A stretch of DNA of 64,000 nucleotides from a virus: IMG/VR virus record IMGVR_UViG_3300033145_001320, positions 1 to 64,000 of that record, one strand, 5' to 3'. A model generated the notes under the pieces. The model searched no databases and was not told where the DNA came from. It saw nothing but the letters and a program-made list of their open reading frames with translations. The stretch's first letter is position 1. The number at the start of each line of letters is the position of its first letter. Both the position numbers and the translations under genes were made by a program. Positions 5,201-61,085 of this stretch are shown here, in pieces.

Positions 5201-6133
5201 CTACGAAGTTTGTAGTCTTTCTAAAACATCAAACATTCGTGGTGGTATAATCAGAACACTTTCTGCTGCATTTTCCATTAACCTTTTAATGTTAAGGTTC
5301 GGTTCGAAACTACTATATCTCACAATCGCAAGAAACATTTGCCATGCTGTTGGCAATCTATTTCCTGACGCTGTTTGCATTTCATCCAATAATGTTGAAA
5401 CAGCTTCCCTTCTCTTTTTTCCAAATCCTTCTACTACATCAAGAACCCCAAGCATTTCTTGTTCACTAAGTTCACTTGAAAAACTTTGAGTAATCATATC
5501 TGCAATGTTTTCTGTAAACACTCCCATATAGGAATTAATTGCAGATGCCATTTCTGTATTAGAATTAACAATATGAATCTGCCTCATTTCTCCGAGACTA
5601 AAACCGAATGTTACTCGCTCTCTATTCACATATGTTGCAATTCCAAAAGATAAGGATGCTGCTTTTGTTCCATTATAACTATTTTGAACAATCATAACTG
5701 GAAGTACATCTCCTGCATTTGGAACATTTTGTGAACTTTGAATAATCAATTCAGTTCTCATTCGTGTGAGATCATAACTGAGAATACAATTTTCAGTTAC
5801 TATTGGCATACCTACTGCCTGAACTGCTGATCTGATTCTTTCATTCAATACATCGTTACCCATGAATTGATAAAAGTCAGATACTGTACCACAATATTTA
5901 TATTCATCATCATCTGGAGCTTTTGTAAATATTGCCATCATCGGCATTTCAAACCCATCAGTTGGATGAGTTGCCTCCATCCCTCGATCTATATATGGAG
6001 AAGGCATTGTTGTTGCTTGTCTATATACGATTTCAGAATATCTATCGGAATAACTATAAAGTCCTCTAAATGAGCGACCTTGCAATCCCATTGATTCTGC
6101 TCTTTCGCTAAAGGGTGTCCTCATCGGGATCAC
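5201..6133 (-). CDS. DUF932-like phage protein
   Basis: G.VSDFYQ...N and VQNSYNGT.A.S motifs resemble the DUF932 NS(H/Y)DG motif. Confidence 0.5.
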   Translation of the reverse strand: MIPMRTPFSERAESMGLQGRSFRGLYSYSDRYSEIVYRQATTMPSPYIDRGMEATHPTDGFEMPMMAIFTKAPDDDEYKYCGTVSDFYQFMGNDVLNERIRSAVQAVGMPIVTENCILSYDLTRMRTELIIQSSQNVPNAGDVLPVMIVQNSYNGTKAASLSFGIATYVNRERVTFGFSLGEMRQIHIVNSNTEMASAINSYMGVFTENIADMITQSFSSELSEQEMLGVLDVVEGFGKKRREAVSTLLDEMQTASGNRLPTAWQMFLAIVRYSSFEPNLNIKRLMENAAESVLIIPPRMFDVLERLQTS

Positions 6134-43065: not shown

Positions 43066-44499
43066 CTATATCCTTACCACATATCCAGTCTTGTTCACAG
43101 CATCAGCAGTACCATTAGGAGTTATAACCCAAATTAATTTATTCGGGAGAAGCTTCCGTGGTATTTCATTAATGTTTTCAGTGTAACCATCTGTAAAAGC
43201 AAGGCACACATCACAACATAATTCTTTTGCTCTTTTAAGACCAGGATATAATGTTGTTCCACCTCGACCTTTAATGTCGAATTGGATGTCTCGAAGTTTC
43301 TTTACAGCATATTCTTTCTCAACTACGGCATCAACTTCAAGAACTGTTGTATAACAATGTCTATCTTTTTCGATTATATTCTTAACGCCTGACAATCCTT
43401 CTAAAATATCATCAGACGACATACTACCAGACGTATCAATCAAAACACAAATATCAAATGTCATGTCTCGAGTCTTACCCGGAAATGGAGATATTTGAGG
43501 AACATTCTTGTTGTCCTTCAATAGAAAAGTATATGTTCTCTTTCGATTTATTTTTGTAGGGGAACGTCTGAATTTACTGAATCGTGTACCCCTTACAAGT
43601 TTTCTGATTATCTGATAGTAAGGTGCCTTTGGTGGTGCTAAAGCACTTTGTATTAATTGTGAAATGTGTGATGGAATCGACCCTCGATCTTTATTAAAAC
43701 TTTTCACAGATTCTTTAACAATGTTCGAAATGTGTTGATCAATTTTTCTGGATAATGCACTTAAATCGGGAACACCTTTTGTTCCATTAATCCAATCCCT
43801 ATGAGTATCAAGTCCACCATGTGCAGGACACCCTTCGGCACCAAAACCAGGGCATGAGTTATCTTCTGATTGATCAGATTTTCCTTCGCCCTGACCTTTA
43901 CCCTGACCTTCTTCTTTTCCTTCGCCTTTTCCATCACCATCACATTTATCACCATCCTGATTGTTATTTTTTGGACAGCTTTTACACATTTGTTGTATTA
44001 ACTGTTGTATAGTTTCATCATGATTTTGAAGTAAGTGTAGATAATATTCTTCTGTTACCTTTCCTTCCTCCATATCATATGTTGCAGGCAATTGGGGTGG
44101 CCACGCTTTCCCTGCAACAATTATAGGTTCTCTTATATTGGCTTGAACATTAACTGAACAATCAGCAGCAATATTCCAAGCCTGGATTTTTAAAGCTTTT
44201 CTATCGTTGATAGTCTCATTTGCTAATATTCTTAACAAACGTGTGATATGCTTATTTAATAAATGCATACCCTCATGTTCAATGATTTTATATATTTCTT
44301 TATCATCTGTTGCCATAAAGAGATCAGGTTCATATAATAATGTTATTGTTCCGTCAGGTTGAGGAGCAACACCCATAATAGAACCAAAGTTCTTTGCAGG
44401 TTTTCTTCTGACTCTTGAAAACAGATATCCCCAGTAATTATACTTCAATACGAATCTTGCAATTAATTGTTTTAATCTATCTCCGGCATTCTGTTCCAT
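43066..44499 (-). CDS. DUF2201-type metallopeptidase-like + vWA protein (MoxR partner)
   Basis: HEGMH (HExxH), WNIAADC..N, G/E/K-rich linker, DTSGSM, GRGGT and FTDGY. Confidence 0.88.
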   Translation of the reverse strand: MEQNAGDRLKQLIARFVLKYNYWGYLFSRVRRKPAKNFGSIMGVAPQPDGTITLLYEPDLFMATDDKEIYKIIEHEGMHLLNKHITRLLRILANETINDRKALKIQAWNIAADCSVNVQANIREPIIVAGKAWPPQLPATYDMEEGKVTEEYYLHLLQNHDETIQQLIQQMCKSCPKNNNQDGDKCDGDGKGEGKEEGQGKGQGEGKSDQSEDNSCPGFGAEGCPAHGGLDTHRDWINGTKGVPDLSALSRKIDQHISNIVKESVKSFNKDRGSIPSHISQLIQSALAPPKAPYYQIIRKLVRGTRFSKFRRSPTKINRKRTYTFLLKDNKNVPQISPFPGKTRDMTFDICVLIDTSGSMSSDDILEGLSGVKNIIEKDRHCYTTVLEVDAVVEKEYAVKKLRDIQFDIKGRGGTTLYPGLKRAKELCCDVCLAFTDGYTENINEIPRKLLPNKLIWVITPNGTADAVNKTGYVVRI

Positions 44500-44508
44500 A
44501 GCAACTCC

Positions 44509-45774
44509 TTATAAAGAACCTTCGCCAGCCTGCACAACTGGATCATAGAAATTTTTCTTATATGACTTTGAACTCTTCAACAATACCATGTGAATTTTTG
44601 TCATATACATAAATGCTGGCGATGACCTATCAAAAGAATCAATCTGCGAAATAAATAACGCCGCAGTATCAATTGGCATAATCAATAGAAAATCAAGCAC
44701 GTTTTTCAATTTCTTATCATCATATTTAGGCATTGTTGTTGTCATATATGTGCAAAACCCAACCATCAATTCACTCAATTTTGAGTTATCATTGTCTTTC
44801 AACAATTTATTAATTTCAGGTTTAACAGCGCGGAAATTATGAAATACATCTTTTGGGTTAATGTCTTTCTTATCCCTTGCAAATTCAATGAATAATCGAG
44901 TCATGTGGGTATTTAAAAGACCTGATGCCTTGACTTCGATTTCAGCAAAGTCAATTGTTTTTCTTCGCATTTCCATTTTCCACAGAATATCTGAAAGTTT
45001 TTCATAACTTGCAGGGTTGGCATAAACTGATCCCAACTTTTGAGATTGAAAATCATATAGATATTCAGGATGAGTTTGAATAAACTCAACAATGTATGGA
45101 TGAAAATCATGTTCAATTGCATAGTTCAAAAAGTCTACTGCACTAACTTCTGTATAAACATGAAGCTGCCGTCTAAGTCCTGCGGCATCCTCAAGGTTAT
45201 CCATAGAATACTCAGAATCATCAGGGTTGTCAATTGATATAACAAACCATCCTTTTGGAAAGGGATACCGATGAACTGAGTATTCATCTTGGATTTGCCA
45301 CAATAACTGTTGTAATTGATGGTCTCCACGTGAAAATTCATCAATAACAAATATTCCATATGTATCTTCATATTTCGGAACGAAGTCCGAATATAACATT
45401 TTGAATGAAAATTGTTCATCCCCTTCAACTTCAACTGGGAATGGAATAATAAAATCGTCCCTTGAAAGAACAGGGGACTTAACCATAATACAACCGAAAT
45501 CTTTTATATTGTCCGGATTCTTTTTGTTATGGCTACCAAACATTTCTTCCTGTAATTCATTTGCGATTTGGTAGCAGATTTGAGTTTTACCAACTCCCGC
45601 TGGTCCGATGATGTGGTAACATTGTCTGACAACATCTCGCCCCAAATTCCATGTGGCGACTGTGTCCATGATATCATTTTTGATTAAGCTTTTAATTTTA
45701 TCAATTGATAAAACAGAGATATTTAAACGTTCGTGATATTTTAATTCAGCATCTTTTGTATTTTCATCAGCCAT
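44509..45774 (-). CDS. MoxR-like AAA+ ATPase
   Basis: GPAGVGKT, IDEFSR, NP..SEYS...EDAA..RR; adjacent vWA partner. Confidence 0.87.
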   Translation of the reverse strand: MADENTKDAELKYHERLNISVLSIDKIKSLIKNDIMDTVATWNLGRDVVRQCYHIIGPAGVGKTQICYQIANELQEEMFGSHNKKNPDNIKDFGCIMVKSPVLSRDDFIIPFPVEVEGDEQFSFKMLYSDFVPKYEDTYGIFVIDEFSRGDHQLQQLLWQIQDEYSVHRYPFPKGWFVISIDNPDDSEYSMDNLEDAAGLRRQLHVYTEVSAVDFLNYAIEHDFHPYIVEFIQTHPEYLYDFQSQKLGSVYANPASYEKLSDILWKMEMRRKTIDFAEIEVKASGLLNTHMTRLFIEFARDKKDINPKDVFHNFRAVKPEINKLLKDNDNSKLSELMVGFCTYMTTTMPKYDDKKLKNVLDFLLIMPIDTAALFISQIDSFDRSSPAFMYMTKIHMVLLKSSKSYKKNFYDPVVQAGEGSL

Positions 45775-47706: not shown

Positions 47707-48675
47707 TTATAATACTAATGATAAATAAACTGGAGTATTGTTTTGCTGAATCAAATCTCCGCCACCGCCAGATGTTGTTTCTAACATAGTTGTCCTGAGT
47801 GAGTCATCAGTACTCATTATTCCTTGAGCTTTAATATCAATTGACTCCAATATTGGAAGAATCTCTGATCTTAAATGCTGACCAAAATCTTCTAACGTTT
47901 TCTTGACAACCTCTGCTGACGCACCTTTAGGAATCTCAGGTAATATCAATGCAGTTTCCTGAAGTTTTCCAAGCATTTTTAATCGGAGCATTTCAGCTCC
48001 ATAACAACCACGAAGCAGAAGCTTCCAATAAGCTTCCCAATGTTCACTTGAGGGCATTATTTCAATACCGACAGGAACTCCAGAAAACATAATGATGGCA
48101 CCTATTTGCCCGTCAACAGGTTCAAATTCTGCTGCAAACTGTTCAAGAGCATCTTTGATTTCTGGTGTATCATAGAAATACCTAAGATGAGCAGCGTTTC
48201 TTTTTACTGAAAGAGGCAATCCACTCAACCATGTTTTGATTGATCCCCAAAGTTTGCTGTAACTATTCGCTTGTCGTAACGATGGATTTACTAATGCTTT
48301 TCGCAGGGCAATTGGTAGAATATCTTCTTCGTTTTTATCACCACGAAGATATCCTCCTTGCTCTTGTTCAATACAACATGCAGTATCAAAACTACCACTT
48401 GCATTTGCCTGAATAACTCCAGAACCTGCCATTGCATGATCCTGACCTGCTTTTCCTCGTACCATCATATTGGATGGAACAATTGCTGGCATTCCTATAT
48501 CATCATTATCAAATACCATTGTTCCATAATCCGAGGTAGTTCTGAACTTCAAATGTTCAGGTCCTGCTATTTCCCCTCTGCTATCTCCAAGTATCGGAAC
48601 GACGGTCATCTCATTGACTGATTGTACGTTGCCAATTTCTATGCCAGTGAACTTCAACTTATTAAAAATGTTCAT
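47707..48675 (-). CDS. ARPP-family (DUF6569-like) protein
   Basis: Q...M.VVPI, GQDHAM, CCIEQ.QGG and F.AEFEPV.GQIGAII...G..VGIE..PS pattern; adjacent to the vWA gene. Confidence 0.55.
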   Translation of the reverse strand: MNIFNKLKFTGIEIGNVQSVNEMTVVPILGDSRGEIAGPEHLKFRTTSDYGTMVFDNDDIGMPAIVPSNMMVRGKAGQDHAMAGSGVIQANASGSFDTACCIEQEQGGYLRGDKNEEDILPIALRKALVNPSLRQANSYSKLWGSIKTWLSGLPLSVKRNAAHLRYFYDTPEIKDALEQFAAEFEPVDGQIGAIIMFSGVPVGIEIMPSSEHWEAYWKLLLRGCYGAEMLRLKMLGKLQETALILPEIPKGASAEVVKKTLEDFGQHLRSEILPILESIDIKAQGIMSTDDSLRTTMLETTSGGGGDLIQQNNTPVYLSLVL

Positions 48676-48689
48676 AATTTAATGACCTC

Positions 48690-50210
48690 CTATCCGAGTA
48701 ATGTTTGATATTTTTGAACTAACAATGACTTGACCATATCACGATTTTGTAACATTCGATTAAAAATAATCTCAGTTTCCAAAAATCTATAATCGGTCAA
48801 TGGCATTGCATCAACCCCTTCTACCAAACTACGAGTTGTACCGCTTTTTGCATCTGCTGAAAATACTGGATTTAAATGAAGAAGGTTAAATTTCGCACCT
48901 TCACTTTTAAAGTGTTTATAGGTATGTTCAAACATACCTTTTATTTCATTTTCATATCCGTCAGACACGACCACGATATTTTCAACCCCTGTTTGAATAG
49001 CATCAACAAGTCCGCTCCACAAATTAGTTGCACCATTTGGAACCAACACATTGACTTTGCTTTTGGTTGGAGTTTCTACAACTTTACCGCCTATGTAAAA
49101 GACATCCTTGATATTGTCCAATGCCGATACTAAACATAGTGATGTGATAAATGGATGCAATGGACGCTGTTCACTTCCTATCATTGATTTTGATGCATCA
49201 ATGATAACAACACATTCTCCTATGGTGAGACGTTTCTGTCTACCGCTTACTACAACGATAGCTTCTTCTATCTCATCCATATTATCAGATTCATCGTTTA
49301 GAAGTTTATAGTAGAAAGATTTCCATAGATCATACAAGTCCTGTTTCTGATAATCGACTTTGAATGATGTTGCTCCACTTTTCTTGGCTGCGCTTTCCAG
49401 CTGAATCTTTTCACGATCAGTCATCTTTGCAGTTGAATATATTTCTGAAATATCAATATCAACTCCATAAGTATTACGAAATCCCATAACTGTTCGCTGA
49501 GGCATACCCTTCATATATTTTCTAAATGAAGTAGTAAGACCTGATTGCGCTGCTTGTCTTAAAGACCAATAGTTATCAATCTTTGGAAAATATGTTGAGA
49601 GTCCTTCACGACGAGGTTCTTTATCAAAGATGTGACAAAATACAGGATATGATTCCATATTGTATCTTCCAATCCACTTTGAGAAAAGTTTCATGTCACC
49701 ATTCAATATTTTGAATAAGTCCTGTTTACCTAATGCATGTCGTACAAGGGTTTTCAATTTTCCTTTATAGTTTACTGCCAGTCCATCAAGATCTCTGGAA
49801 TCACGGTCGAAGATAAAACTCAATATAAGTTTTCTTGTTCTTGCATTATTAACTCTATTAAATCCTTCTGCACCTGTTAGCATTAAAAGATTTTTTAATG
49901 CTCTTGGGATACGCTCTTTTGACAGATTGTAAAGAATGACTTTCGATTCATAATCAAAGGAAAGACCATCAACAGCAGGAAGATTACTTGAAGGTACAGG
50001 ATTACCAAGTAACATATGTGTCATTGCACCTTTCGAAAAACCTGTTCCTTTAAGAAGAGTTATTAAACAGAATAGCGTTCTATCATAATTGAATAAATCG
50101 CTCCACATTTGAACTACACGGCTAAATTGTTCGTCTGCATCCTCATAATATGCGCCTTTTGGTACGTATTGAAGAATCCCTGAGTCAATTTTGGTTTTGC
50201 TTAAATCCAT
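48690..50210 (-). CDS. Ro60/TROVE-like protein: helical N-terminal region plus C-terminal vWA domain
   Basis: 506 aa; MIDAS motif DASKSM...GATNL...VSDGYEN after a basic alpha-helical region. Directly downstream of the structured RNA array. The vWA call is solid; Ro-likeness is inferred from architecture and context. Confidence 0.6.
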   Translation of the reverse strand: MDLSKTKIDSGILQYVPKGAYYEDADEQFSRVVQMWSDLFNYDRTLFCLITLLKGTGFSKGAMTHMLLGNPVPSSNLPAVDGLSFDYESKVILYNLSKERIPRALKNLLMLTGAEGFNRVNNARTRKLILSFIFDRDSRDLDGLAVNYKGKLKTLVRHALGKQDLFKILNGDMKLFSKWIGRYNMESYPVFCHIFDKEPRREGLSTYFPKIDNYWSLRQAAQSGLTTSFRKYMKGMPQRTVMGFRNTYGVDIDISEIYSTAKMTDREKIQLESAAKKSGATSFKVDYQKQDLYDLWKSFYYKLLNDESDNMDEIEEAIVVVSGRQKRLTIGECVVIIDASKSMIGSEQRPLHPFITSLCLVSALDNIKDVFYIGGKVVETPTKSKVNVLVPNGATNLWSGLVDAIQTGVENIVVVSDGYENEIKGMFEHTYKHFKSEGAKFNLLHLNPVFSADAKSGTTRSLVEGVDAMPLTDYRFLETEIIFNRMLQNRDMVKSLLVQKYQTLLG

Positions 50211-50310
50211 TATTCGTTAGTCCTCCCTTATTAAATTTCATTCCAACGTAAGTAAAACATATCCAATTTTTTAGTGTGAAAAATAAAAATCAATAATGCA
50301 CCTCAAATAA

Positions 50311-50381
50311 TTGGGTGGACTAGTTATTAGTATAATTACAATAGTTATCTATTATAGTTACCTAACACTAATCCACCCCAA
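50311..50381 (-). other. Long hairpin between the ncRNA array and the vWA gene
   Basis: TTGGGGTGGATTAGTGTTAG...CTAATAACTAGTCCACCCAA. Confidence 0.6.
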
Positions 50382-50393
50382 GCTAAGGAGGTT

Positions 50394-50518
50394 TCTTGAA
50401 AGTGTAAATGTATTATGTTTGGGTGAAAAACAGGTATCGAAACCTGCTACCTATTGCTTTAAATGCAATTGCTCTACCAAATGAGCTATTTTCAGAAAAT
50501 ACAAAAAGTCTTTCAAGA
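50394..50518 (-). ncRNA. Array unit 4: scaffold stem enclosing a near-complete tRNA-like body (50420-50494; anticodon-position TTA)
   Basis: TCTTGAAAG-ACTTTT-TGTATT-TTC-[TGAAAA TA GCTC ATTTGGTA GAGC A ATTGC ATTTAAA GCAAT AGGTA GCAGG TTTCGATA CCTGT TTTTCA CCCA]-AACAT-AATACA-TTTACA-CTTTCAAGA. Confidence 0.8.
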
Positions 50519-50527
50519 GAAAAATAG

Positions 50528-50587
50528 ATGGAGGAATATATGCAGTTGTTGATTTTAAAGTAATCTGAATCTGCATAAAGTCTCCAT
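50528..50587 (-). ncRNA. Array unit 3: scaffold stem with anticodon-like stem-loop (loop ACTTTAA)
   Basis: ATGGAG-ACTTT-ATGCAG-ATTCA-GATT ACTTTAA AATC-AACAA-CTGCAT-ATATTC-CTCCAT. Confidence 0.7.
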
Positions 50588-50603
50588 GAAATAAACATAG
50601 TGA

Positions 50604-50675
50604 AATAGAAGCTGTAAATGTAATTGTAGTTATTTTCTCCAAATGAAAAACAGAAATTACATTAAGTCTTCTATT
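50604..50675 (-). ncRNA. Array unit 2: scaffold stem with anticodon-like stem-loop (loop ATTTGGA, TTG)
   Basis: AATAGAAG-ACTT-AATGTAATT-TCTGT-TTTTC ATTTGGA GAAAA-TAACTAC-AATTACATT-TACAG-CTTCTATT. Confidence 0.7.
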
Positions 50676-50687
50676 AGAAATTTTGAA

Positions 50688-50796
50688 GCCCGAAGTGGAA
50701 ATTGTATTATGTTGAGGGACTTGAACCCTATACGCTTGTTTATCATACAAGTGCTGAACCAATCAGCTATCAGAAAATACAAAAAGTCTTCTGGGC
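50688..50796 (-). ncRNA. Array unit 1: scaffold stem enclosing a tRNA-like body (D arm, anticodon arm GAT, T arm, truncated acceptor stem)
   Basis: GCCC(A)GAAG-ACTTT-TTGTATT-TTC-[TGA TA GCTGA TTGGT TCAGC A CTTGT ATGATAA ACAAG CGTAT AGGG TTCAAGT CCCT CA]-ACAT-AATACAA-TTTCCA-CTTCGGGC. Confidence 0.8.
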
Positions 50797-50859
50797 ATAA
50801 ATGATAATAAAAAATGATATTGGAGTTGAATCCAAAATAGTTTTTGCCGATAATCATTC

Positions 50860-50881
50860 ATTCAGTTATTAATATATATAG
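50860..50881 (-). promoter_or_regulatory. Candidate early phage promoter CTATATATATTAATAACTGAAT
   Basis: 20/22 identical to 61064-61085. Both copies are intergenic and head a structured leader plus operon. Confidence 0.6.
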
Positions 50882-50902
50882 ACAATAATTTTTAAAATGA
50901 AT

Positions 50903-51163
50903 TTATGTGGCGTCTACGAGGACAGGTTTTTTTGCATCACCCAAATCAAATATTAACTTTCTGCCTGGGTAATTGTCAGCAGTAGATGACATAATTTGTT
51001 TTACAGAATGAGGCATAGAATTATTTGTGTAATATAATTGGACCCCGCCTTTAAAATTAAATACAATTCCATCATGAGTCTCTGAAACATCTACTAACTC
51101 ACTTCTATCGACACTTAAATTTAAAGATTTATGTTTGATTATTATTTGTGTGTTGTCTGCCAT
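50903..51163 (-). CDS. Hypothetical protein
   Basis: 86 aa, last gene of the RNAP set 2 operon. Confidence 0.6.
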   Translation of the reverse strand: MADNTQIIIKHKSLNLSVDRSELVDVSETHDGIVFNFKGGVQLYYTNNSMPHSVKQIMSSTADNYPGRKLIFDLGDAKKPVLVDAT

Positions 51164-51790: not shown

Positions 51791-54700
51791 TTAATCCCTC
51801 GTCAACATTAATGATATAAAATATGAGTTTAATAAATCTCTTGCAGGTGATGTTTTTGGTTCACGATATTCGGCACCACCAGTTTTAATAATTTCTGCTA
51901 ACATTTCTTCTTTTGTTATATAATCATCTGATAGTGGACCCATGAACTCTGCAAGCACGCTAGGACAGTTATAAGAAATGAATGAATAGGTATCAAGCTC
52001 TCCTAACCTCTGTCCTCCTTCACGCCTTTTACCAGCAGTAGGTTGTGCTGTTTTTCCTGTCATTGGTCCTGTTGAACGTCCGTATATTTTTGCATCGCCC
52101 ATATGCTCCAACTTTGCTATATACATATAACCTACTGGAACAGCATGAGTAGTAGATGTATTATATTCAGGTAGTTTTAATTTATATGTTGATTTCAATC
52201 CAATAGATTTTAATGCATTTTCAATATCTTTATGACTTGGTGCTTTAAAAGGTGGAATAATAATTGGATAGAATCCACTTTTCTTAATTTCAGCTATGAA
52301 TTTAGTATATGCTGTTGCACTCAAACTTGATATATTCTTACCGAGTCTTTCTGTTGTTTCTTTATTTTTTGACTTATCTAAATGACCATATACTTTTTTA
52401 ATTAAAGCAACAACTTGTGTTTTTGTTTTCAGAGTTGGAATGATTTTTCCAAGTTCTTTTGCTATTAGTCCACAATACATTTCATACAATTGCCCGATAT
52501 TCATTCGACCTAATAACCCAAGAGGATTCAAAAGAATTTCAACACGGTCACCATTTGGCATTCTTGGCATCAATTCATCTTTTTCAATTATTGAAATGAT
52601 ACCCTTGTTTCCATAACGGTTGCAGAGTTTATCACTTACTTTAATATCTAACTCTTGTTCAATTTTAAATCGAATATAAACTCCCTTTATTGTTTCACCT
52701 TTATATGTAAATTTATCTTTTGGAAGTTTTGGATTTCGTTTGTTTGTCCTTGCAATGAGATCTTTTAACATTGGAAATTTAGAATCACCAACATTAGAAA
52801 ATATATCAATATCAACAATTCGACCACCCTGACTCTTTTTAATAAATTGACCTGAATGCATATCAGTAGTTTCATCTTCTTCAAAGCCAATAATATCTTC
52901 AACGTCTCCAAATGTCTTTCTTAATATTGGTTTTCCTTTTGCAATTGAATCGCCGACCTCTGCAATATAAAGAAGTCTGTCATTTTCAGCAACTATAACT
53001 TCTTCTTCAATTCCATGAAGGGATGTTAGTTTTCCTTCTTTAGCAACACTCTCACTTATAACAGCACCATCCTCAAAGTTATATCCTTTGTATGGCATTA
53101 AGGCAGCTAGTAATGGTCTACCTAATGCAATTGCACCATTAGACATACAAGCACCTTCTGCAATAACTTGGTTTTCTTTGACTCTTTCATTCTTTTCAAC
53201 AACAGGATTGAATACACTCAAGGTATTCTTTCCTGAACCAGAACGAAGATGTACAGGTGATATATCGACCGTCTTAGACCCCTTAGAACCGCATTGAATC
53301 TTAATTGCATCCTTGGATATACTTAGTATCTTACCGTTGCATGGGGACCGCTTTACGAAGTTGTCAGACAGAACGTCCGTAAGGATTGACTCGTATCCTG
53401 ACTGTACAATAGGCGCTTGAGGATCCTTTAATGGAACCATCTGCTTTGCTTGATTTGCAAGCATTATTATTCTAGCACCATCTACATTTTCAAGGAATGG
53501 CACCATTGATGTAGTCGTTGACAACATTCCTGATTTTTCGGTATTGGTTATATTTTTACTTGAGAACATGCCACGTGAAGATGAGATTAAAGCATCAATT
53601 GTTAGCTGTTGAGCAATACCAATATTATCACTTTCAGGAGTATCTAATGGATCAATATTTCCAAAATAGCTTGGGTGAATATTACGAGCTATTGTTTGAA
53701 TTGCTCTCTTATCAGGTATGCCGCCTACCTTTTGGCCAACAGGAGAAACTCGAGTCATAGTTGACATCTCTTCAATTGGATTTGCGTATTCCATATCAAC
53801 AACTAATTCTGTCATTAAGAAATCGCTTAATACTTTTGTTGATGGAATTTCAAATTGTGCTTGTTCATTTCCTGATAATACTTGTTCTTTATACACTGTA
53901 TATGCAGCAAGAATTTGTTTCTGTGTTAAATGAACCAATACTTCTGAATTTCTAATACGTTGATTTGATAAATCATTACGTTCAATGACATATCCTTGTA
54001 CAACTTTATCAGCCATATAGTTCATAATCAAATCAAGACTAGTTGGAAACTGTTGACTTTTCAATACTTGCTTTGCAACAGGATCAACAATATTTTGTAA
54101 GTTTGAACTGATTAAGAATGTTGAGTTCATTCTTCCAGTTAGACTAATAATTAAATCTTCAAAGTATTCTTTTGATGGAAATTCTTTTTCAATTGTATAT
54201 TGTTCTGGTTTCCCATGTATAAAACCTACAACCATTTGCTCTTGAAGTTCAGTGTTTATATTTTTAAATACACAATACTGCCCTTCTTTGATTTTAGCAA
54301 AATACTTTTCACCTGTTGGTTTTGTATCAACAATTTCATATTTTATTTTGTATTGGTTACATGTTTTTTCAAAACCAAAACTAAATGATAATAAGAAAAA
54401 CAAAGGCATTTTATATGACATAAATGCTTCTAGATATTTAACACGTCTTAAACTTTTAACATAGATTCTAAATACAGAATATGAACTTTCGAATCGTGAA
54501 TGTCCTGGTTTCGGAAACGTTATCGGATTCTGTACAATTTGATTAACAAGACATTTTTGTTTTCCATTTAATCTAAAGACTCCTGTACTTGGATTAATAC
54601 GTGGAAGTTCTAGTTTGATATTATGTACATTGCCAAATTGATCTTTCAATGTAACGGTTGCAATGTTAATATCTGATTTTAATATTTCTCCAGCTCGTCC

Positions 54701-55879
54701 TGGTTTATGAGAAATAGAAAATTTTTCAAACTTCAATGGAAGATCTTTTGATTCCAATACCTTAAATGAACTAATCAAATCTTTTCTTAGATTTGTTTCA
54801 AAGTCTAACTGTCTTTTCTTAAATATATGTTTTGGAGCTTTTCCGTCAACCATCTTTACAGGATCGTATGTTTTGATGGTTTCGTTTATTGCTAAACTTT
54901 CTGCTTTTGTAGGAGGAATTATATCCCCCGCTAATGTTGAACTGATTGCAGTTAAAGCTTTTGTTTTCCCTTTAGCTGGAATTTTCTTTGCAATAGCTGT
55001 AGCTCTGTTTATATCTCCACTAGTTCCATATAAAATAGAAGATGTTGCAATGGTTTTAATTTCATCTGCATTTGCATCACCAGAGACAATTTTTGTAACC
55101 TCATCAGGATCTTTTTGTAAGTATGTTTGGATTGCTCCTTTTATGCTAGCTACATTTTTTGAGTCAATATTTTTATCGAGTACTTTCATTATAATTTTTG
55201 TAGCTTTATTTGTTTCTGTTTCTTGTTCTGTATCAGTCAGGACACCTTTTAAATTTCTTACATAATGAAGTACTCTTTGAAATGTAAATTCTCCATCCTT
55301 TACAAGAAGTCTATAATTTGATTTTCCATTAGTTACTGTATTCAATATCATATCATCAAATAGAAAACTTCCATCTTTCATATCACGAACAATTGGAAAT
55401 ATCTTTCTATTGACAAATGTATTAACTTCTCTATTTAAATCTATAGAATATAAAAGAATTTTTTGATAGTTGTCTGGGAACTGTGCAGTTGCTGTCTTTA
55501 AAATATTTTTTAATAGAAACCCAGCTCTTTGTCTGTAGTTGGTTGGTTTATGCATTACATCAATAGCATTTGTGTATTGTGATAAATCAAGGATAACGTT
55601 TTTTCCTGGTGGGACTTTTTGGTTGGCTGCATATGGTATTAATTTTAAAGCACGATATGCTCTCACAAGATCAGGAGTCATTCTTGTTCTTGGAACTGTT
55701 GTCAATGGAACTGATACATTCTTAAAATCAATCTTCCTCAAATTCATTTTCGCATAATCTTCAATAAAATTTGAGTTCTCAGGAAAATATATTAAAAGAA
55801 ACGGTTCTTTTATATCCTGTGGAAATCTAACTCCATCAACAATATGTGTATATTGTCTCCAATTTTTAAATTGAATCAT
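51791..55879 (-). CDS. rpoB: DNA-directed RNA polymerase beta subunit, set 2 (probably virion RNAP), with ~400-aa N-terminal extension
   Basis: GVFRLNG, HPSYFGNIDPLDTPE, GYNFEDG, SDKLCNRYGNKGIIS, NPLGLLGRMNIGQ and GGQRLGELD; 1362 aa. Confidence 0.95.
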   Translation of the reverse strand: MIQFKNWRQYTHIVDGVRFPQDIKEPFLLIYFPENSNFIEDYAKMNLRKIDFKNVSVPLTTVPRTRMTPDLVRAYRALKLIPYAANQKVPPGKNVILDLSQYTNAIDVMHKPTNYRQRAGFLLKNILKTATAQFPDNYQKILLYSIDLNREVNTFVNRKIFPIVRDMKDGSFLFDDMILNTVTNGKSNYRLLVKDGEFTFQRVLHYVRNLKGVLTDTEQETETNKATKIIMKVLDKNIDSKNVASIKGAIQTYLQKDPDEVTKIVSGDANADEIKTIATSSILYGTSGDINRATAIAKKIPAKGKTKALTAISSTLAGDIIPPTKAESLAINETIKTYDPVKMVDGKAPKHIFKKRQLDFETNLRKDLISSFKVLESKDLPLKFEKFSISHKPGRAGEILKSDINIATVTLKDQFGNVHNIKLELPRINPSTGVFRLNGKQKCLVNQIVQNPITFPKPGHSRFESSYSVFRIYVKSLRRVKYLEAFMSYKMPLFFLLSFSFGFEKTCNQYKIKYEIVDTKPTGEKYFAKIKEGQYCVFKNINTELQEQMVVGFIHGKPEQYTIEKEFPSKEYFEDLIISLTGRMNSTFLISSNLQNIVDPVAKQVLKSQQFPTSLDLIMNYMADKVVQGYVIERNDLSNQRIRNSEVLVHLTQKQILAAYTVYKEQVLSGNEQAQFEIPSTKVLSDFLMTELVVDMEYANPIEEMSTMTRVSPVGQKVGGIPDKRAIQTIARNIHPSYFGNIDPLDTPESDNIGIAQQLTIDALISSSRGMFSSKNITNTEKSGMLSTTTSMVPFLENVDGARIIMLANQAKQMVPLKDPQAPIVQSGYESILTDVLSDNFVKRSPCNGKILSISKDAIKIQCGSKGSKTVDISPVHLRSGSGKNTLSVFNPVVEKNERVKENQVIAEGACMSNGAIALGRPLLAALMPYKGYNFEDGAVISESVAKEGKLTSLHGIEEEVIVAENDRLLYIAEVGDSIAKGKPILRKTFGDVEDIIGFEEDETTDMHSGQFIKKSQGGRIVDIDIFSNVGDSKFPMLKDLIARTNKRNPKLPKDKFTYKGETIKGVYIRFKIEQELDIKVSDKLCNRYGNKGIISIIEKDELMPRMPNGDRVEILLNPLGLLGRMNIGQLYEMYCGLIAKELGKIIPTLKTKTQVVALIKKVYGHLDKSKNKETTERLGKNISSLSATAYTKFIAEIKKSGFYPIIIPPFKAPSHKDIENALKSIGLKSTYKLKLPEYNTSTTHAVPVGYMYIAKLEHMGDAKIYGRSTGPMTGKTAQPTAGKRREGGQRLGELDTYSFISYNCPSVLAEFMGPLSDDYITKEEMLAEIIKTGGAEYREPKTSPARDLLNSYFISLMLTRD

Positions 55880-55881
55880 TC

Positions 55882-58800
55882 TTATCTCCTACGTTTTTTA
55901 GTTTCAACCAATGTTCCTGTAAGGACTTTTTCAAGAATACTTGGGTCACCACCATCATCTGTAATGAGTCCAGTTTTTATAGCTTCGTTTACATTTTCGA
56001 ATGCCAGTCCCTGGATAAAACTTGTTTTGAATACAATTTGTTTTATGTTAATCATTGTGGGATCCCATTTCTGTCCAAGTCTTGCTGGAATGCTTTGATT
56101 CTTTTTATCTCTCAATGCTTGTGATAATAAGACTTCAAGGTGTACAGAATCCATATTTCTCAATGTTCCATAAACAGCAAACAGTTTTAAGAATAAATGA
56201 TTTGCATCTTTATAGATTTCTCGACCACCTAATAAACGTCTTACATATTGAATTTGTGCTTTTGTATCGTCAGTCTGTATTGGTATTTCTAATACAGTAC
56301 TATTTGCTTCATATGATATCTTTGTAAATTCTTTTCCTACTTTTTCATCATTATATGTTTTTAGAATGGCTGGATAATCTAATATAATATTAAAAATAGA
56401 ATCATCATATTCAACCTTACATACTAATGCTTTAACAATAATTTCATTATCAATTTCATTATAAACTAAATCATCAGGTAAAGGATAATCTTCTTTATTT
56501 AAAGTCAGTACCATAGGACGTTTTGTAAATAATTCAGTATTATTCTGACCCAAATTTTTCATGATATTTTCTTTTGTGGTTAATGGATCGTTTTGAATAA
56601 TGTCATATCTGATATCTCTATCTTTAATCTTTACTGCTCCACCTGTATGGAATGATTTCATGATTGTTTGTGTACCTGCTTCTCCAACAAGCTGTGCTGC
56701 TAAAACTCCAACGTAAGGACTTTTGTGTCGTTTTAATAAATCACCATAACAAGTATGACATAATTTAGTAGACTCACATAATATAGGACTTCTTAAATTA
56801 ACAACATCTCCAACTTTTGTTTTACCTGGATCAAATCTTTCAACAGAATTTCCATTTAGGATATATCTACCTGTGAATATTCCTTTCATTTCTTTTGTCA
56901 TTCTGAAACTCAAATGACGTTTTGTTTTGCAATCTTTTAAACTCCTATCAATTTCAACAGTATTTAAAACATATGCAAGCTGGCGTGACATATAACCTGT
57001 ATCAGCAGTATTTAAAACACGATCAATTATACCTTTTCTTGAACCAGATGCTGCTGTAAAATATTCTTTATTTGTTAGACCATCTGCAAACGAACCTTTA
57101 ATTGCAGGAAGCACTTTTCCAGTTGGATCAGCAATCAATCCTTTTGCAACTAAAATTTGCATTGGTTGAGTCCATCCTTTTCCAGATCCAGATTGGACCA
57201 GATCATATAGTCCTGTACCCTTTAAATGTTCAACTAATAATTTTTCCATCTCTTCTAACAATACGGCAGCTTCTTCTGTTGTTGCACCATCTAACTTTTT
57301 CTTTAATTGTAGAATTGATGTTGGTAATTGAATATCATCTAATGTTATACTTGGTGAAGAAATTGTTGCAAATTTAAAACCTATTGTTTTCAATGCTGAG
57401 AATGTATTGATTGCTTGTTCACGCCCATACATTTCAAGAATTACAGGAATAAGACCATTTACAATTTTGCTATTAACTTCTTGATCAATAAAAGGATACG
57501 ATAGTGGGAATGTACTATTGAATATTGCTTTTCCCATAGTTGTAGTTTTCCCACGATATTTAACAGGGATATATGGATCAGATGCATTTTGTAAATCTGT
57601 ATTAGTAACAGAAATGGGTGGTGCTGTTCTTTTGACATTTTTTGTGATTGTATATAAACCAACACACATTTCTTTTGACAACTCAAATGTTACGGCAGTG
57701 GCAGAGTCTCCACTTTCTCCATTCATCATTTTACTTATAACTTCAGCTTGTGCTTCAGTTGTTATAGGATGATAAATTGCCATTGTGTCTCCATCAAAAT
57801 CAGCATTGAATCCGCCTACTTGGAGAGTACATAATCGTACTGTATTTCCATCAACTAAAATTGGTTTGAATCCACGAACAGATTCAGGTCGAAGTGCAGG
57901 ATCACGTTTTGCTAATACACTACGATTCATCATTGCTACTTCTGCCGCATCCCATATAATTTTATATAACTCTGGTGGAAGAACATCTCCACTTCCTACA
58001 GCTTTAAATACAGATTTAATACTATCAATTGATAATTCTAATTCTGTATGCTTTGTTACAGCTGCTGCTAATTTTGCTTGATCTACTTGACCAGAATAAA
58101 ACAACCGATGAATAATAAAAGGTTCAAACAAACTTATTGCTAACCTTAACGGGATACCAATCTCATTTACTTTTAAGTCTGGACCAGGCGTAATAACAGC
58201 GCGACCAGAAAAGTCTGTACGTTTGGCTAATAGACTTGAACGAATCAACCCATTCTTCTTTTGAATTAATTTACGAATGAATCCATCATGGGCAATTACT
58301 GCCTTTTGAAGTTCATAATTTAAAAGATCGAATAAAGGTCCTGATTTAGATGCACTCTTAATTTGATATGCTCGTCTAATTAAAGAAATGTAATGATCAT
58401 TTATTGGATCGTATATCCACATTCCTTTCTCATCCTGATATGCATCACGTTGTTCGGGTGGAATGACAGGAACTGTATCAATAAATAGATTGTTTTCTTT
58501 TATAGATTGTTTTATCTTTTTAATGAATTTATCTCTAGTTTCTGTCCCGCCTCTAAATTTTATCTTTGGTAGAATCTTAATAAACTCTGAAATGCCTGTT
58601 ACTCCATCAGGGTCAGTAATCAATAATCCTTGTGAATTAACTTTATATGTTTCCTCAGTTGATAGGAATTTTTCAATCTTTCTATCTAGCTGAAGTAATA
58701 ACATATATGCTGATGGATGAATAACTAATGCATTTAGTTTAATATATGAAAATGTCTTTTTACGATCTGTAGACTCTTCTGGACCAAAAATAATTTCTGA

Positions 58801-58905
58801 AAACAACCCCTCAGGATGCCATTCGCCTGGCTTTGAGAAAAACTCTGTTGTAGTAACAGGAGTAAGTCCTTGTTTGAACTTTTTGATATCCAAAAATTGT
58901 ATCAT
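55882..58905 (-). CDS. rpoC: DNA-directed RNA polymerase beta' subunit, set 2
   Basis: GLFSEIIFGP, KRTDFSGRAVI, KRDPAL, catalytic NADFDGD, TADTGYMSRQL and GTQTIMKSFHTGG; 1007 aa. Lacks the N-terminal 4-Cys Zn domain. Confidence 0.96.
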   Translation of the reverse strand: MIQFLDIKKFKQGLTPVTTTEFFSKPGEWHPEGLFSEIIFGPEESTDRKKTFSYIKLNALVIHPSAYMLLLQLDRKIEKFLSTEETYKVNSQGLLITDPDGVTGISEFIKILPKIKFRGGTETRDKFIKKIKQSIKENNLFIDTVPVIPPEQRDAYQDEKGMWIYDPINDHYISLIRRAYQIKSASKSGPLFDLLNYELQKAVIAHDGFIRKLIQKKNGLIRSSLLAKRTDFSGRAVITPGPDLKVNEIGIPLRLAISLFEPFIIHRLFYSGQVDQAKLAAAVTKHTELELSIDSIKSVFKAVGSGDVLPPELYKIIWDAAEVAMMNRSVLAKRDPALRPESVRGFKPILVDGNTVRLCTLQVGGFNADFDGDTMAIYHPITTEAQAEVISKMMNGESGDSATAVTFELSKEMCVGLYTITKNVKRTAPPISVTNTDLQNASDPYIPVKYRGKTTTMGKAIFNSTFPLSYPFIDQEVNSKIVNGLIPVILEMYGREQAINTFSALKTIGFKFATISSPSITLDDIQLPTSILQLKKKLDGATTEEAAVLLEEMEKLLVEHLKGTGLYDLVQSGSGKGWTQPMQILVAKGLIADPTGKVLPAIKGSFADGLTNKEYFTAASGSRKGIIDRVLNTADTGYMSRQLAYVLNTVEIDRSLKDCKTKRHLSFRMTKEMKGIFTGRYILNGNSVERFDPGKTKVGDVVNLRSPILCESTKLCHTCYGDLLKRHKSPYVGVLAAQLVGEAGTQTIMKSFHTGGAVKIKDRDIRYDIIQNDPLTTKENIMKNLGQNNTELFTKRPMVLTLNKEDYPLPDDLVYNEIDNEIIVKALVCKVEYDDSIFNIILDYPAILKTYNDEKVGKEFTKISYEANSTVLEIPIQTDDTKAQIQYVRRLLGGREIYKDANHLFLKLFAVYGTLRNMDSVHLEVLLSQALRDKKNQSIPARLGQKWDPTMINIKQIVFKTSFIQGLAFENVNEAIKTGLITDDGGDPSILEKVLTGTLVETKKRRR

Positions 58906-61063: not shown

Positions 61064-61085
61064 ATTCAATAATTAATATATATAG
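61064..61085 (-). promoter_or_regulatory. Candidate early phage promoter CTATATATATTAATTATTGAAT
   Basis: 20/22 identical to 50860-50881. Confidence 0.6.

Follow-up and report, generated by a model that had tools for sequence, protein, structure and literature searches.

A tandem array of probable Y RNA-like noncoding RNAs, two with tRNA-like heads, upstream of a divergent Ro60-type gene in a huge-phage fragment

What a series of small RNA elements with anticodon-like loops is doing in front of a phage protein gene is the question raised by the 64,000-nucleotide (nt) stretch of DNA analyzed here, which is called the window and corresponds to positions 1 to 64,000 of the IMG/VR virus record IMGVR_UViG_3300033145_001320. 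The elements are four tandem units at 50394-50796, in which an initial annotation, made from the sequence alone, had seen a possible decoy repertoire directed against host anticodon nucleases. The source record comprises 81.8 kb and is estimated to be about 26% complete, and the window is a fragment of a huge phage with a G+C content of 33%, the minus strand of which holds all 39 open reading frames (ORFs) of at least 150 codons. On this strand, a 690-nt gap lies between an 86-codon ORF (50903-51163) on one side and a 506-codon ORF (48690-50210) on the other, and the array fills most of it. Particles of Ro60 and Y RNA are found in animals, in bacteria, and in a few phages. The array in the window is likely to consist of four tandem Y RNA-like noncoding RNAs (ncRNAs), the partners of a divergent phage Ro60-type protein that is encoded by the 506-codon ORF.

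The four-unit array is real and not a product of chance. A 451-nt stretch folds at -95.3 kcal/mol (z = -4.39), a value that none of 100 shuffled sequences matched, and the fold is composed of four separate long-range stems. All four units are on the minus strand. Unit A (50688-50796) reads as a Y-like RNA in which the basal stem bears a tRNA-like head that has D, anticodon, and T arms and no acceptor stem; units B (50604-50676) and C (50526-50590) read as short Y-like RNAs with a basal stem and one hairpin; and unit D (50394-50518) combines the basal stem with a full cloverleaf tRNA mimic. The end of the array is separated by 184 nt from the start codon of the 506-amino-acid gene on the same strand, and the array thereby shares with Y RNAs a location near a Ro60-type gene. 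The four stem-loops that the initial annotation listed are present exactly as it had written them, namely, CUUGU-AUGAUAA-ACAAG in unit A (50751-50735, triplet GAU), which the Rfam tRNA model aligns as the homolog of the anticodon arm; UUUUC-AUUUGGA-GAAAA, the apical hairpin of unit B (50649-50633) and probably a homolog of the D arm; GAUU-ACUUUAA-AAUC, the apical hairpin of unit C (50565-50551), as read from the sequence; and AUUGC-AUUUAAA-GCAAU in unit D (50469-50453, triplet UUA), the homolog of the anticodon arm.

The conserved and covarying part of the units is the basal stem. The 5′ ends of all four units follow the pattern ...RGACUUnnUGUrnUUUCWG, and the 3′ ends follow ...ACAuUUACAn with the complement of the first bases; these shared ends therefore define a base that comprises helix S1, an internal loop, helix S2, and a UUCWG hinge. 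Helix S1 has 5-9 bp of free sequence, the internal loop presents G|ACU(U) on its 5′ side and about 5 nt opposite, helix S2 has approximately 9 bp with an invariant UGU/ACA, and the hinge tops the base, with the variable head sitting above it. A stem that pairs the ends of the RNA and contains a conserved internal loop is a feature of Y RNAs, and S1 and S2 form such a stem. The G-U pairs in it make the structure specific to the transcribed strand. In a MAFFT alignment of 28 short units, 95.2% of the cells of S1 and S2 are paired, compared with 72.7% in shuffles (none of 500 reached the observed value) and 40-46% with slid partners, and 11 of the 15 pairs have changed on both sides. By analogy with Y RNAs, this base may be the binding platform of the Ro-like ring.

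The distribution of the base was followed with covariance models, which replaced a unit finder based on regular expressions and pairing that had given overlapping and spurious units. Model R1 describes the basal stem and was built from the alignment of the 28 short units, with B and C among the training rows, and model R2 describes the tRNA-like units and was built from 14 of them, with A and D among the training rows. R1 scores C at 60.2 bits (50528-50587) and B at 55.5 bits, both as training rows, and it scores A at 29.9 bits and D at 25.2 bits, neither of which was used in training; its default filters find C, B, and A, and D is found only with the filters off. Across the 64-kb window, R1 detects nothing beyond the array units below E = 0.01. 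R2 scores its training rows A and D at 102.9 and 100.7 bits, B at 31.4 bits through the basal stem only, and C at 19.4 bits.

Protein-anchored scans with the product of the 506-codon ORF yielded 76 viral loci and 80 metagenome loci, and those at 49-77% protein identity all have similar arrays. Over 523 kb of DNA, comprising the window and 85 loci, R1 finds 245 matches at E <= 0.001, of which all but one (244) run in the same direction as the Ro-like gene, and every one of the 187 matches of R2 has this orientation; all 280 rows of the stored R1 and R2 alignments lie upstream of the Ro-like gene and on its strand. Array matches are present in 58 of the 58 loci that have at least 700 nt of upstream DNA. 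The loci carry at least two (6 loci), three (16), four (24), five (9), or six (3) units, numbers that are lower bounds because they are counted among the best 150 matches of R2 and the best 130 matches of R1. A search of viral contigs with a DNA pattern of the 5′ motif returned mostly single chance matches, with two matches in one of the 80 loci listed, and a scan of prokaryote genomes with the A2 pattern found no relative, a result that has no bearing on the host.

The 506-amino-acid protein encoded downstream of the array (48690-50210, minus strand) is predicted to form a helical-repeat ring followed by a vWA domain with a DxSxS MIDAS (metal-ion-dependent adhesion site) motif, the architecture that characterizes Ro60 and TROVE proteins. 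It has no match in Pfam, PHROG, or NCBIfam, and 347 relatives were found at E <= 0.001 among 1.84 billion representatives. An AlphaFold2 model computed from a 67-row alignment has a predicted local distance difference test score of 94 and a predicted template modeling score of 0.90, and the top 11 structures retrieved with it from the Protein Data Bank (PDB) by Foldseek are all Ro60/TROVE proteins, including frog and human Ro60, Rsr of Deinococcus radiodurans, and Ro60 of the Thermus phage phiLo. VIA-align superposes the model on Ro60 with Z 18.2 and a root-mean-square deviation of 4.0 Å for 413 residues over 6-481, and on the phiLo Ro60 structures 9l5y and 9kop with Z 14.6 and 14.8, respectively, whereas isolated vWA domains reach Z of at most 11. 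In the MIDAS, D338 and S342 are invariant among 67 homologs, and S340 is kept in at least 90% of them. A profile search of PDB sequences with the Ro60-like family returned no Ro60. As modeled, the protein has the Ro60 fold (TROVE and vWA) and is by profile an unrecognized branch, and the Ro-like label that the initial annotation had given to this neighbor is right at the level of the fold. The annotation had also mentioned, as a side option, that the RNAs might be ligands of a Ro-like ribonucleoprotein (RNP), and this option gains support from the Ro60 fold, the covarying base, and the presence of arrays at every locus with sufficient upstream DNA.

The heads of units A and D are clearly tRNA-like. 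The Rfam tRNA model matches unit D over its full length with 47.7 bits and unit A with 31.3 bits at model positions 8-63 only, which means that unit A has no acceptor stem, and ARAGORN calls a "tRNA-Stop (tta)" at 50421-50495 in unit D. In both heads, the arms follow the natural order of D arm, anticodon arm, and T arm, and both possess, as in tRNAs, a cloverleaf arrangement with a 7-nt loop that contains U33 and a purine at position 37. Neither of them has a complete acceptor end, with a stem of 7 bp, an open 5′ terminus, and N73-CCA. Unit D pairs six of the seven acceptor positions, with a C1·C72 mismatch, and has an 8-nt T loop and no CCA, and both of its ends continue into the basal stem. 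Among 14 homologs, five of the five pairs of the anticodon stem show compensatory changes.

To describe the anticodon-like loops across the family, the 150 best R2 matches were reduced to 107 with anticodon and T stems and then to 102 unique units, which were further divided by a crude measure, how far the anticodon stem lies from the hinge, into 40 with and 62 without an acceptor stem. ARAGORN calls a tRNA in 30 of the 40 acceptor-stem units, and N73-CCA is present in 31 of them; the 8 calls among the 62 acceptor-less units indicate that some units were misfiled by this division. One homolog, at L006:2109-2179, scores as high as 67.3 bits against the Rfam tRNA model. In many relatives, the acceptor-less tRNA-like units contain an extra hairpin of 6-7 bp after the T arm, with a loop starting with N-CCA (for example, L249:1620-1755, L225:1527-1665, L198:1896-2031, and L008:2775-2911), which is not present in unit A; this hairpin looks like a closed acceptor-stem mimic similar to that of YrlA, placed 3′ of the T arm. 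Kissing interactions between the loops of one array were also considered and rejected, since the mean longest complementary run is 3.53 against 3.73 in shuffles, and the observed mean is equaled or exceeded in 922 of 1000 shuffles (32 loci).

The length of the anticodon-like loop is 7 nt in 95 of the 102 tRNA-like units. Among these 95 loops, U33 is found in 91, a purine at position 37 in all 95, and A38 in 80, and the residue at position 32 is C 53 times, A 33 times, and U 9 times. The initial annotation had emphasized that all four window units have A at position 32; this holds for the window, but only for 33 of the 95 homologous 7-nt loops. The triplets are of 26 kinds, with GAU 13 times, UGU, UUA, and UGA 9 times each, UUG and AUC 6 times each, and AUG 5 times. 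Lys-UUU occurs twice, both times in L013, which is the locus of the close set with the greatest divergence; GUG, ACG, and UCU occur once each; CAU, GUA, GUU, GUC, and UUC occur in none of the 95 loops; and 24 triplets begin with A34. A decoding anticodon conserved among orthologs, as expected for a tRNA, is thus not seen, either for the UUA of unit D or for the family. At the unit D position, relatives with 73-77% protein identity have AUUUAAA, AUUUAGC, AUAUGAA, AUUGAGA, or AAUUGGC.

The contrast between the scaffold of the loop and its triplet is evident from the entropies of 85 units with 7-nt T loops from loci other than L013, which are 0.31 bit at position 33 and 0.93 at position 37, compared with 1.62, 1.87, and 1.79 at positions 34-36. 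In the same units, the T loop hardly varies (U, U, C in 84 of 85, R, A), with an entropy of 0 at four of its seven positions. Furthermore, 16 independent pairs of units share at least 80% identity beyond the loop; between the members of these pairs, 12 of 48 triplet positions are different, compared with 201 of 1879 positions elsewhere, and position 33 differs in none and position 37 in one of the 16 pairs. The shape of the anticodon loop, with 7 nt, U33, a purine at 37, and mostly A38, is therefore kept by selection, and the triplet is not. The triplet data give no support for mimicry of particular host tRNAs, and a bait for enzymes that recognize the loop by its shape would be compatible with them.

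The short units have a different kind of head. The 130 best R1 matches comprise 118 unique units, 110 of which have at most 95 nt, and the loop of their first apical hairpin varies from 3 to 9 nt and has 7 nt in only 12 of 101; of these 12 loops, five have U at the second position together with a purine at the sixth, and four have the form A...A. Conservation of the loop, if judged by sequence, fails in both classes of unit, and if judged by length, it stands for the tRNA-like units and fails for the short ones. Common loops of short units are AUUGGA, AUUGG, and AUGGAA (UUGG in 23 units), GGCGAA/GCGA (12), and UUCG (11). In 50 of the 101 units, the hairpin begins 6-8 nt from the start of the segment that separates the S2 strands, a position near the UUCWG hinge, where, as read from the alignment, the D arm of the tRNA-like units also begins. 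The hairpins of B and C directly follow this hinge (UUUCUG in B), at the place that the D arm occupies in A and D, and the B loop AUUUGGA is nearly equal to AUUUGGUA, the D loop of unit D; likewise, loops of short units, CAAUUGGUG for example, are similar to the CAAUUGGUAG D loops of tRNA-like units. For unit B, RNAfold also permits a loop of 5 nt. In L199, the closest relative, A and D have the same loops as in the window, the ortholog of B reads UUUCA-AUUGG-UGAAA, and the counterpart of the C loop is UCGGAU. Hairpins similar to that of unit C (with a UCAGAUU...AAUC stem) have AUUGGA or AUGGAA elsewhere, so that these loops and that of L199 all have 6 nt. The unit C loop ACUUUAA itself (50555-50561, minus strand) recurs on another stem at L256:2246-2319, in a relative with 53% identity, which may reflect chance or a small loop subfamily.

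Judged by position and loop similarity, what B and C most likely retained is a hairpin resembling the D arm rather than an anticodon arm; R2 cannot distinguish the two arms in B and C because it treats the heads as local ends. The proposal that every unit displays an anticodon-like loop therefore applies to A and D, in which the loop belongs to a true anticodon arm, and not to B and C, the hairpins of which stand at the D-arm position, and the related proposal that the short units lost the other arms and retained the anticodon element is probably the reverse of what happened. As the loops of A and D are carried by tRNA mimics that B and C do not have, the anticodon-like loops are part of the mimicry of a whole tRNA.

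If the array encodes Y RNA-like partners of the Ro-like protein, a mode of action can be drawn from the Ro60 systems of Deinococcus, Salmonella, and a Thermus phage. By analogy with these, the common base would dock on the Ro-like protein, and the tRNA-shaped head may recruit or occupy a tRNA-binding factor, such as an exoribonuclease or an enzyme of tRNA repair, modification, or cleavage. The hairpin-only units could give alternative RNPs, as YrlB and Yrn2 do. Several results weigh against an assignment to Y RNAs. The array contains none of the canonical Ro60-binding motifs GNCGAAN0-1G, CGAA, and GGUCCGA, and GNCGAAN0-1G is found within the first 30 nt in 0 of 130 R1 matches, 129 of which contain GACU instead. 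An Rfam scan of 50150-50950 found, even at E <= 10, no credible family besides tRNA and no Y RNA family, and the Rfam Y RNA families had no match at the gathering score in 15 related loci. On the protein side, the Pfam TROVE profile matches none of 19 family members (the window protein and 18 relatives) at E <= 0.01. In addition, the frequent CCA ends and ARAGORN calls of the acceptor-stem homologs mean that a tRNA-like molecule could be released from the array by tRNA processing. A literature search, outside which lay two reviews on bacterial Ro60/TROVE and the supplements of PMC4201824, found no description of this phage family.

The reading of the initial annotation, in which the loops act as decoys or inhibitors and titrate host anticodon nucleases (such as PrrC, RloC, and PARIS) or tRNA-modifying enzymes, perhaps while held on the Ro-like RNP, appears unlikely. 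A loop scaffold that is constrained while its triplet changes rapidly is what such decoys could look like, and A32, which is rare in tRNAs, is found in 25 of the 39 7-nt loops of acceptor-stem units. However, bacterial tRNAs are not known to carry UUA or, apart from ACG, triplets that begin with A34, and with 24 A34 triplets and 9 UUA among the 95 loops, about a third of the units would mimic no natural bacterial tRNA. Moreover, B and C are not anticodon mimics at all, 7-nt loops being scarce in short units and tetraloops of the UUCG and GCGA types common, and the occurrence of five different loops at the unit D position among relatives with 73-77% identity is unlike a decoy for one conserved host tRNA. 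It is an established idea that phage tRNAs with changes in the anticodon loop evade host tRNases (PMC10264068), and distant members of the Ro-like protein family lie inside phage tRNA and transfer-messenger RNA (tmRNA) clusters, both of which fit an involvement in such a conflict. The tabulation of triplets in homologous arrays nevertheless shows no enrichment of nuclease targets: the UUU of tRNA-Lys, the target of PrrC (PMC10264068), is confined to the two loops of L013, CAU, GUA, GUU, GUC, and UUC are absent from the set, and GUG is found once.

Two further explanations concern the nature of the region itself. That cloverleaf units such as D are genuine phage tRNA genes with a leader and trailer paired by chance, the array being a specialized tRNA operon that encodes, for example, an ochre suppressor, is very unlikely, even though both ARAGORN and Rfam call unit D a tRNA, three quarters or so of the acceptor-stem homologs are called tRNAs and carry CCA, and the homolog in L006 has a high tRNA score. 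The same basal stem occurs in units without any tRNA part, so that the stem and not the tRNA defines the family, and the triplets, among which are A34 types and UUA, are not kept among close relatives. Since TAA terminates 24 of the 39 long ORFs in the window, all of which are open under code 11, it is the main stop codon, and an ochre suppressor would be harmful. The imperfect acceptor end and enlarged T loop of unit D, as well as the missing acceptor stem of unit A, also speak against functional tRNAs. These same defects would suit a region of decaying tRNA genes, or a mere structured 5′ leader (attenuator) of the Ro-like operon that yields no trans-acting RNA, and so would the location of the array between the 86-codon ORF and the Ro-like gene on one strand and the result of a terminator scan, which found 0 sites. 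This explanation is nonetheless highly improbable, because the architecture, the unit order, and, through compensatory changes, the pairing are kept down to 49% protein identity and in all 58 loci with enough upstream DNA, and the T loops are nearly invariant, none of which would be preserved by decay.

Transcription signals and an additional hairpin accompany the four units. A conserved AT-rich box, CTATATATATTAATA[TA]CTGA, precedes the first RNA unit at a short distance in 20 of 91 related loci when it is searched for as an exact pattern, and the window contains an exact match, TATATATTAATAACTGAA, at 50861-50878 on the minus strand, about 65 nt upstream of unit A; a copy with two mismatches is located at 61065-61082 (minus strand). 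This box probably serves the array as a phage promoter. A sigma-70 scan gave 8 promoter-like sites, compared with 6.3 expected. A fifth, AT-rich long hairpin with G+C-rich ends (GGGGUGGAUUAG...CUAGUCCACCC; 50313-50381, minus strand; inverted repeat I7) is situated outside 50394-50796, between unit D and the ribosome-binding site, and L199 holds a similar hairpin at this place. It has no R1 match on the minus strand and may represent a degenerate unit, serve as a processing site, or act in regulation. In L003, a relative with 62% identity, two more structured-looking array elements at 5340-5520 start with GGGGUGUACC and ACGGGUGUACC and are without GACU.

Distant Ro60-like members are found in or beside phage tRNA/tmRNA clusters (L013, L015, L016, L018, L023, and L027). 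Seven tRNA-like genes were folded, and at the four loci with less than 30% protein identity among them (L015, L018, L023, and L027), a long stem with the 5′ strand (C)GAGA|ACU surrounds the closest tRNA-like gene on the upstream side. Some of the distant long-stem genes have 6-nt anticodon-like loops, which ARAGORN reports as "(tc)". The distant loci suggest a much wider family of tRNA-like Y RNAs with natural arm order.

The Ro60-like gene is followed directly by a gene with an ARPP-1 domain (47707-48675, minus strand; Pfam PF20208, E = 1.7e-21), its downstream partner, and this arrangement is found in 89 of the 91 close loci and in 63 of the 65 distant ones (152 of 156; L004-L079 and L196-L275). 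The paper that defines ARPP (PMC9503650) lists other partners, and its main text does not contain the words "TROVE" or "Ro60". There is a small chance that the pair of Ro60-like and ARPP-1 proteins works with interchangeable RNA heads on a common docking stem, in which case the tRNA-shaped heads would bait host tRNA-directed defense enzymes, such as anticodon nucleases and tRNA-modifying or ADP-ribosylating toxins, or damaged tRNAs, which would be handed to the Ro ring and ARPP for neutralization or repair. If true, the array would represent a counter-defense by RNA mimicry that evolves by changing the displayed triplet. Two more small genes are kept in the close set only, in 72 and 64 of its 91 loci, numbers limited by flank length. 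For the 324- and 193-amino-acid products of the operon, the ESM Atlas gave unnamed viral clusters only, some with Pam3_Gp34 or DUF5895, or no usable match. The same gene string ends at 43066-45774 (minus strand) with an AAA+ gene (MoxR-like, PHROG 1297) and a DUF2201 metallopeptidase/vWA-like gene, a pair that fits the chaperone pair described for jumbo phages in PMC7824862. The AAA+ gene was seen in 10 of the 91 close loci, few of which have enough downstream flank, and in 0 of the 65 distant loci, and the DUF2201 gene turned up in none of the related loci. Two large genes for RNA polymerase subunits occupy 51791-58905 of the window.

Comparison with characterized systems places the array near bacterial and phage Y RNAs, and the family is apart from these in its docking motif, topology, complete anticodon arm, unit number, and set of protein partners. 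As described in PMC4201824, bacterial Y RNAs are encoded within about 2-4 kb of Ro60, upstream and on the same strand, and each species studied has one tRNA-like and one hairpin-type Y RNA; in Mycobacterium smegmatis, the pair is cut from one precursor. In the same account, Yrn1 of D. radiodurans has the natural arm order and an "anticodon arm" of 5 bp with a 6-nt loop. The window array resembles this partner of Rsr/Ro60 in being upstream of a Ro60 gene, with paired ends, a tRNA-like head with an "anticodon arm" between the other arms, and a hairpin-type companion comparable to Yrn2. In contrast to Yrn1, in which the D arm is doubtful as described, the window family has a clear D arm, a T arm, and a 7-nt loop with U33 and a purine at 37, and the metazoan-type Ro-binding helix that is kept in Yrn1 is replaced by the G|ACU loop and UGU/ACA. 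The number of units, two to six per locus, also differs from the Yrn1 system.

YrlA and YrlB of Salmonella, Mycobacterium, and mycobacteriophages likewise combine, in published descriptions, a tRNA mimic and a hairpin Y RNA beside Ro60 on the same strand. In M. smegmatis, the acceptor stem of YrlA comprises 7 bp, and the RNA is cut by RNase P and ends up carrying CCA; YrlA is permuted, with the order T arm, closed acceptor stem-loop, and D arm (PMC4201824). In YrlA as described there, the Ro stem is found where an anticodon arm would be, and there is no anticodon loop, whereas the window units have D, anticodon, and T arms and a base that extends the acceptor side; a permuted tRNA-like domain without an anticodon arm is found in neither A nor D. 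Unlike YrlA and YrlB, the window array is without GNCGAAN0-1G and has no Rfam match beyond tRNA. Phage Ro60 proteins with upstream Y-like RNAs are known, and the RNP of the Thermus phage phiLo binds host PNPase in vitro (PMC12135203). The window shares with phiLo and its Yrl1 and Yrl2 a phage protein of the Ro60 fold and Y-like RNAs just upstream of it (PMC12135203). However, the Yrl RNAs were located through a CGAA motif and a stem-bulge-stem, the former of which is absent from the window array, and as far as phiLo is described, the tRNA-like heads and the ARPP partner set the window family apart (PMC12135203). The phage tRNAs that evade tRNases share with units A and D the unusual residues in the anticodon loop of a phage cloverleaf RNA (PMC10264068). 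In contrast to the units, those RNAs are presented in that source as working tRNAs with natural anticodons in ordinary tRNA clusters, whereas the window cloverleaf stands on an extra stem that is common to non-tRNA units, and its triplets are not those of decoders.

The family spans many uncultured huge phages of sediments, and its Ro60-like protein is invisible to the TROVE profile. For genome annotation, the array advises caution, as calls of "tRNA-Stop(tta)" beside genes of this kind probably mark Y-like RNAs instead of suppressor tRNAs. The array and the two genes downstream of it form a compact system that can be expressed to learn what a tRNA-mimicking Y RNA recruits, and the same system would show whether phages turn Ro particles against host defenses that target tRNA.

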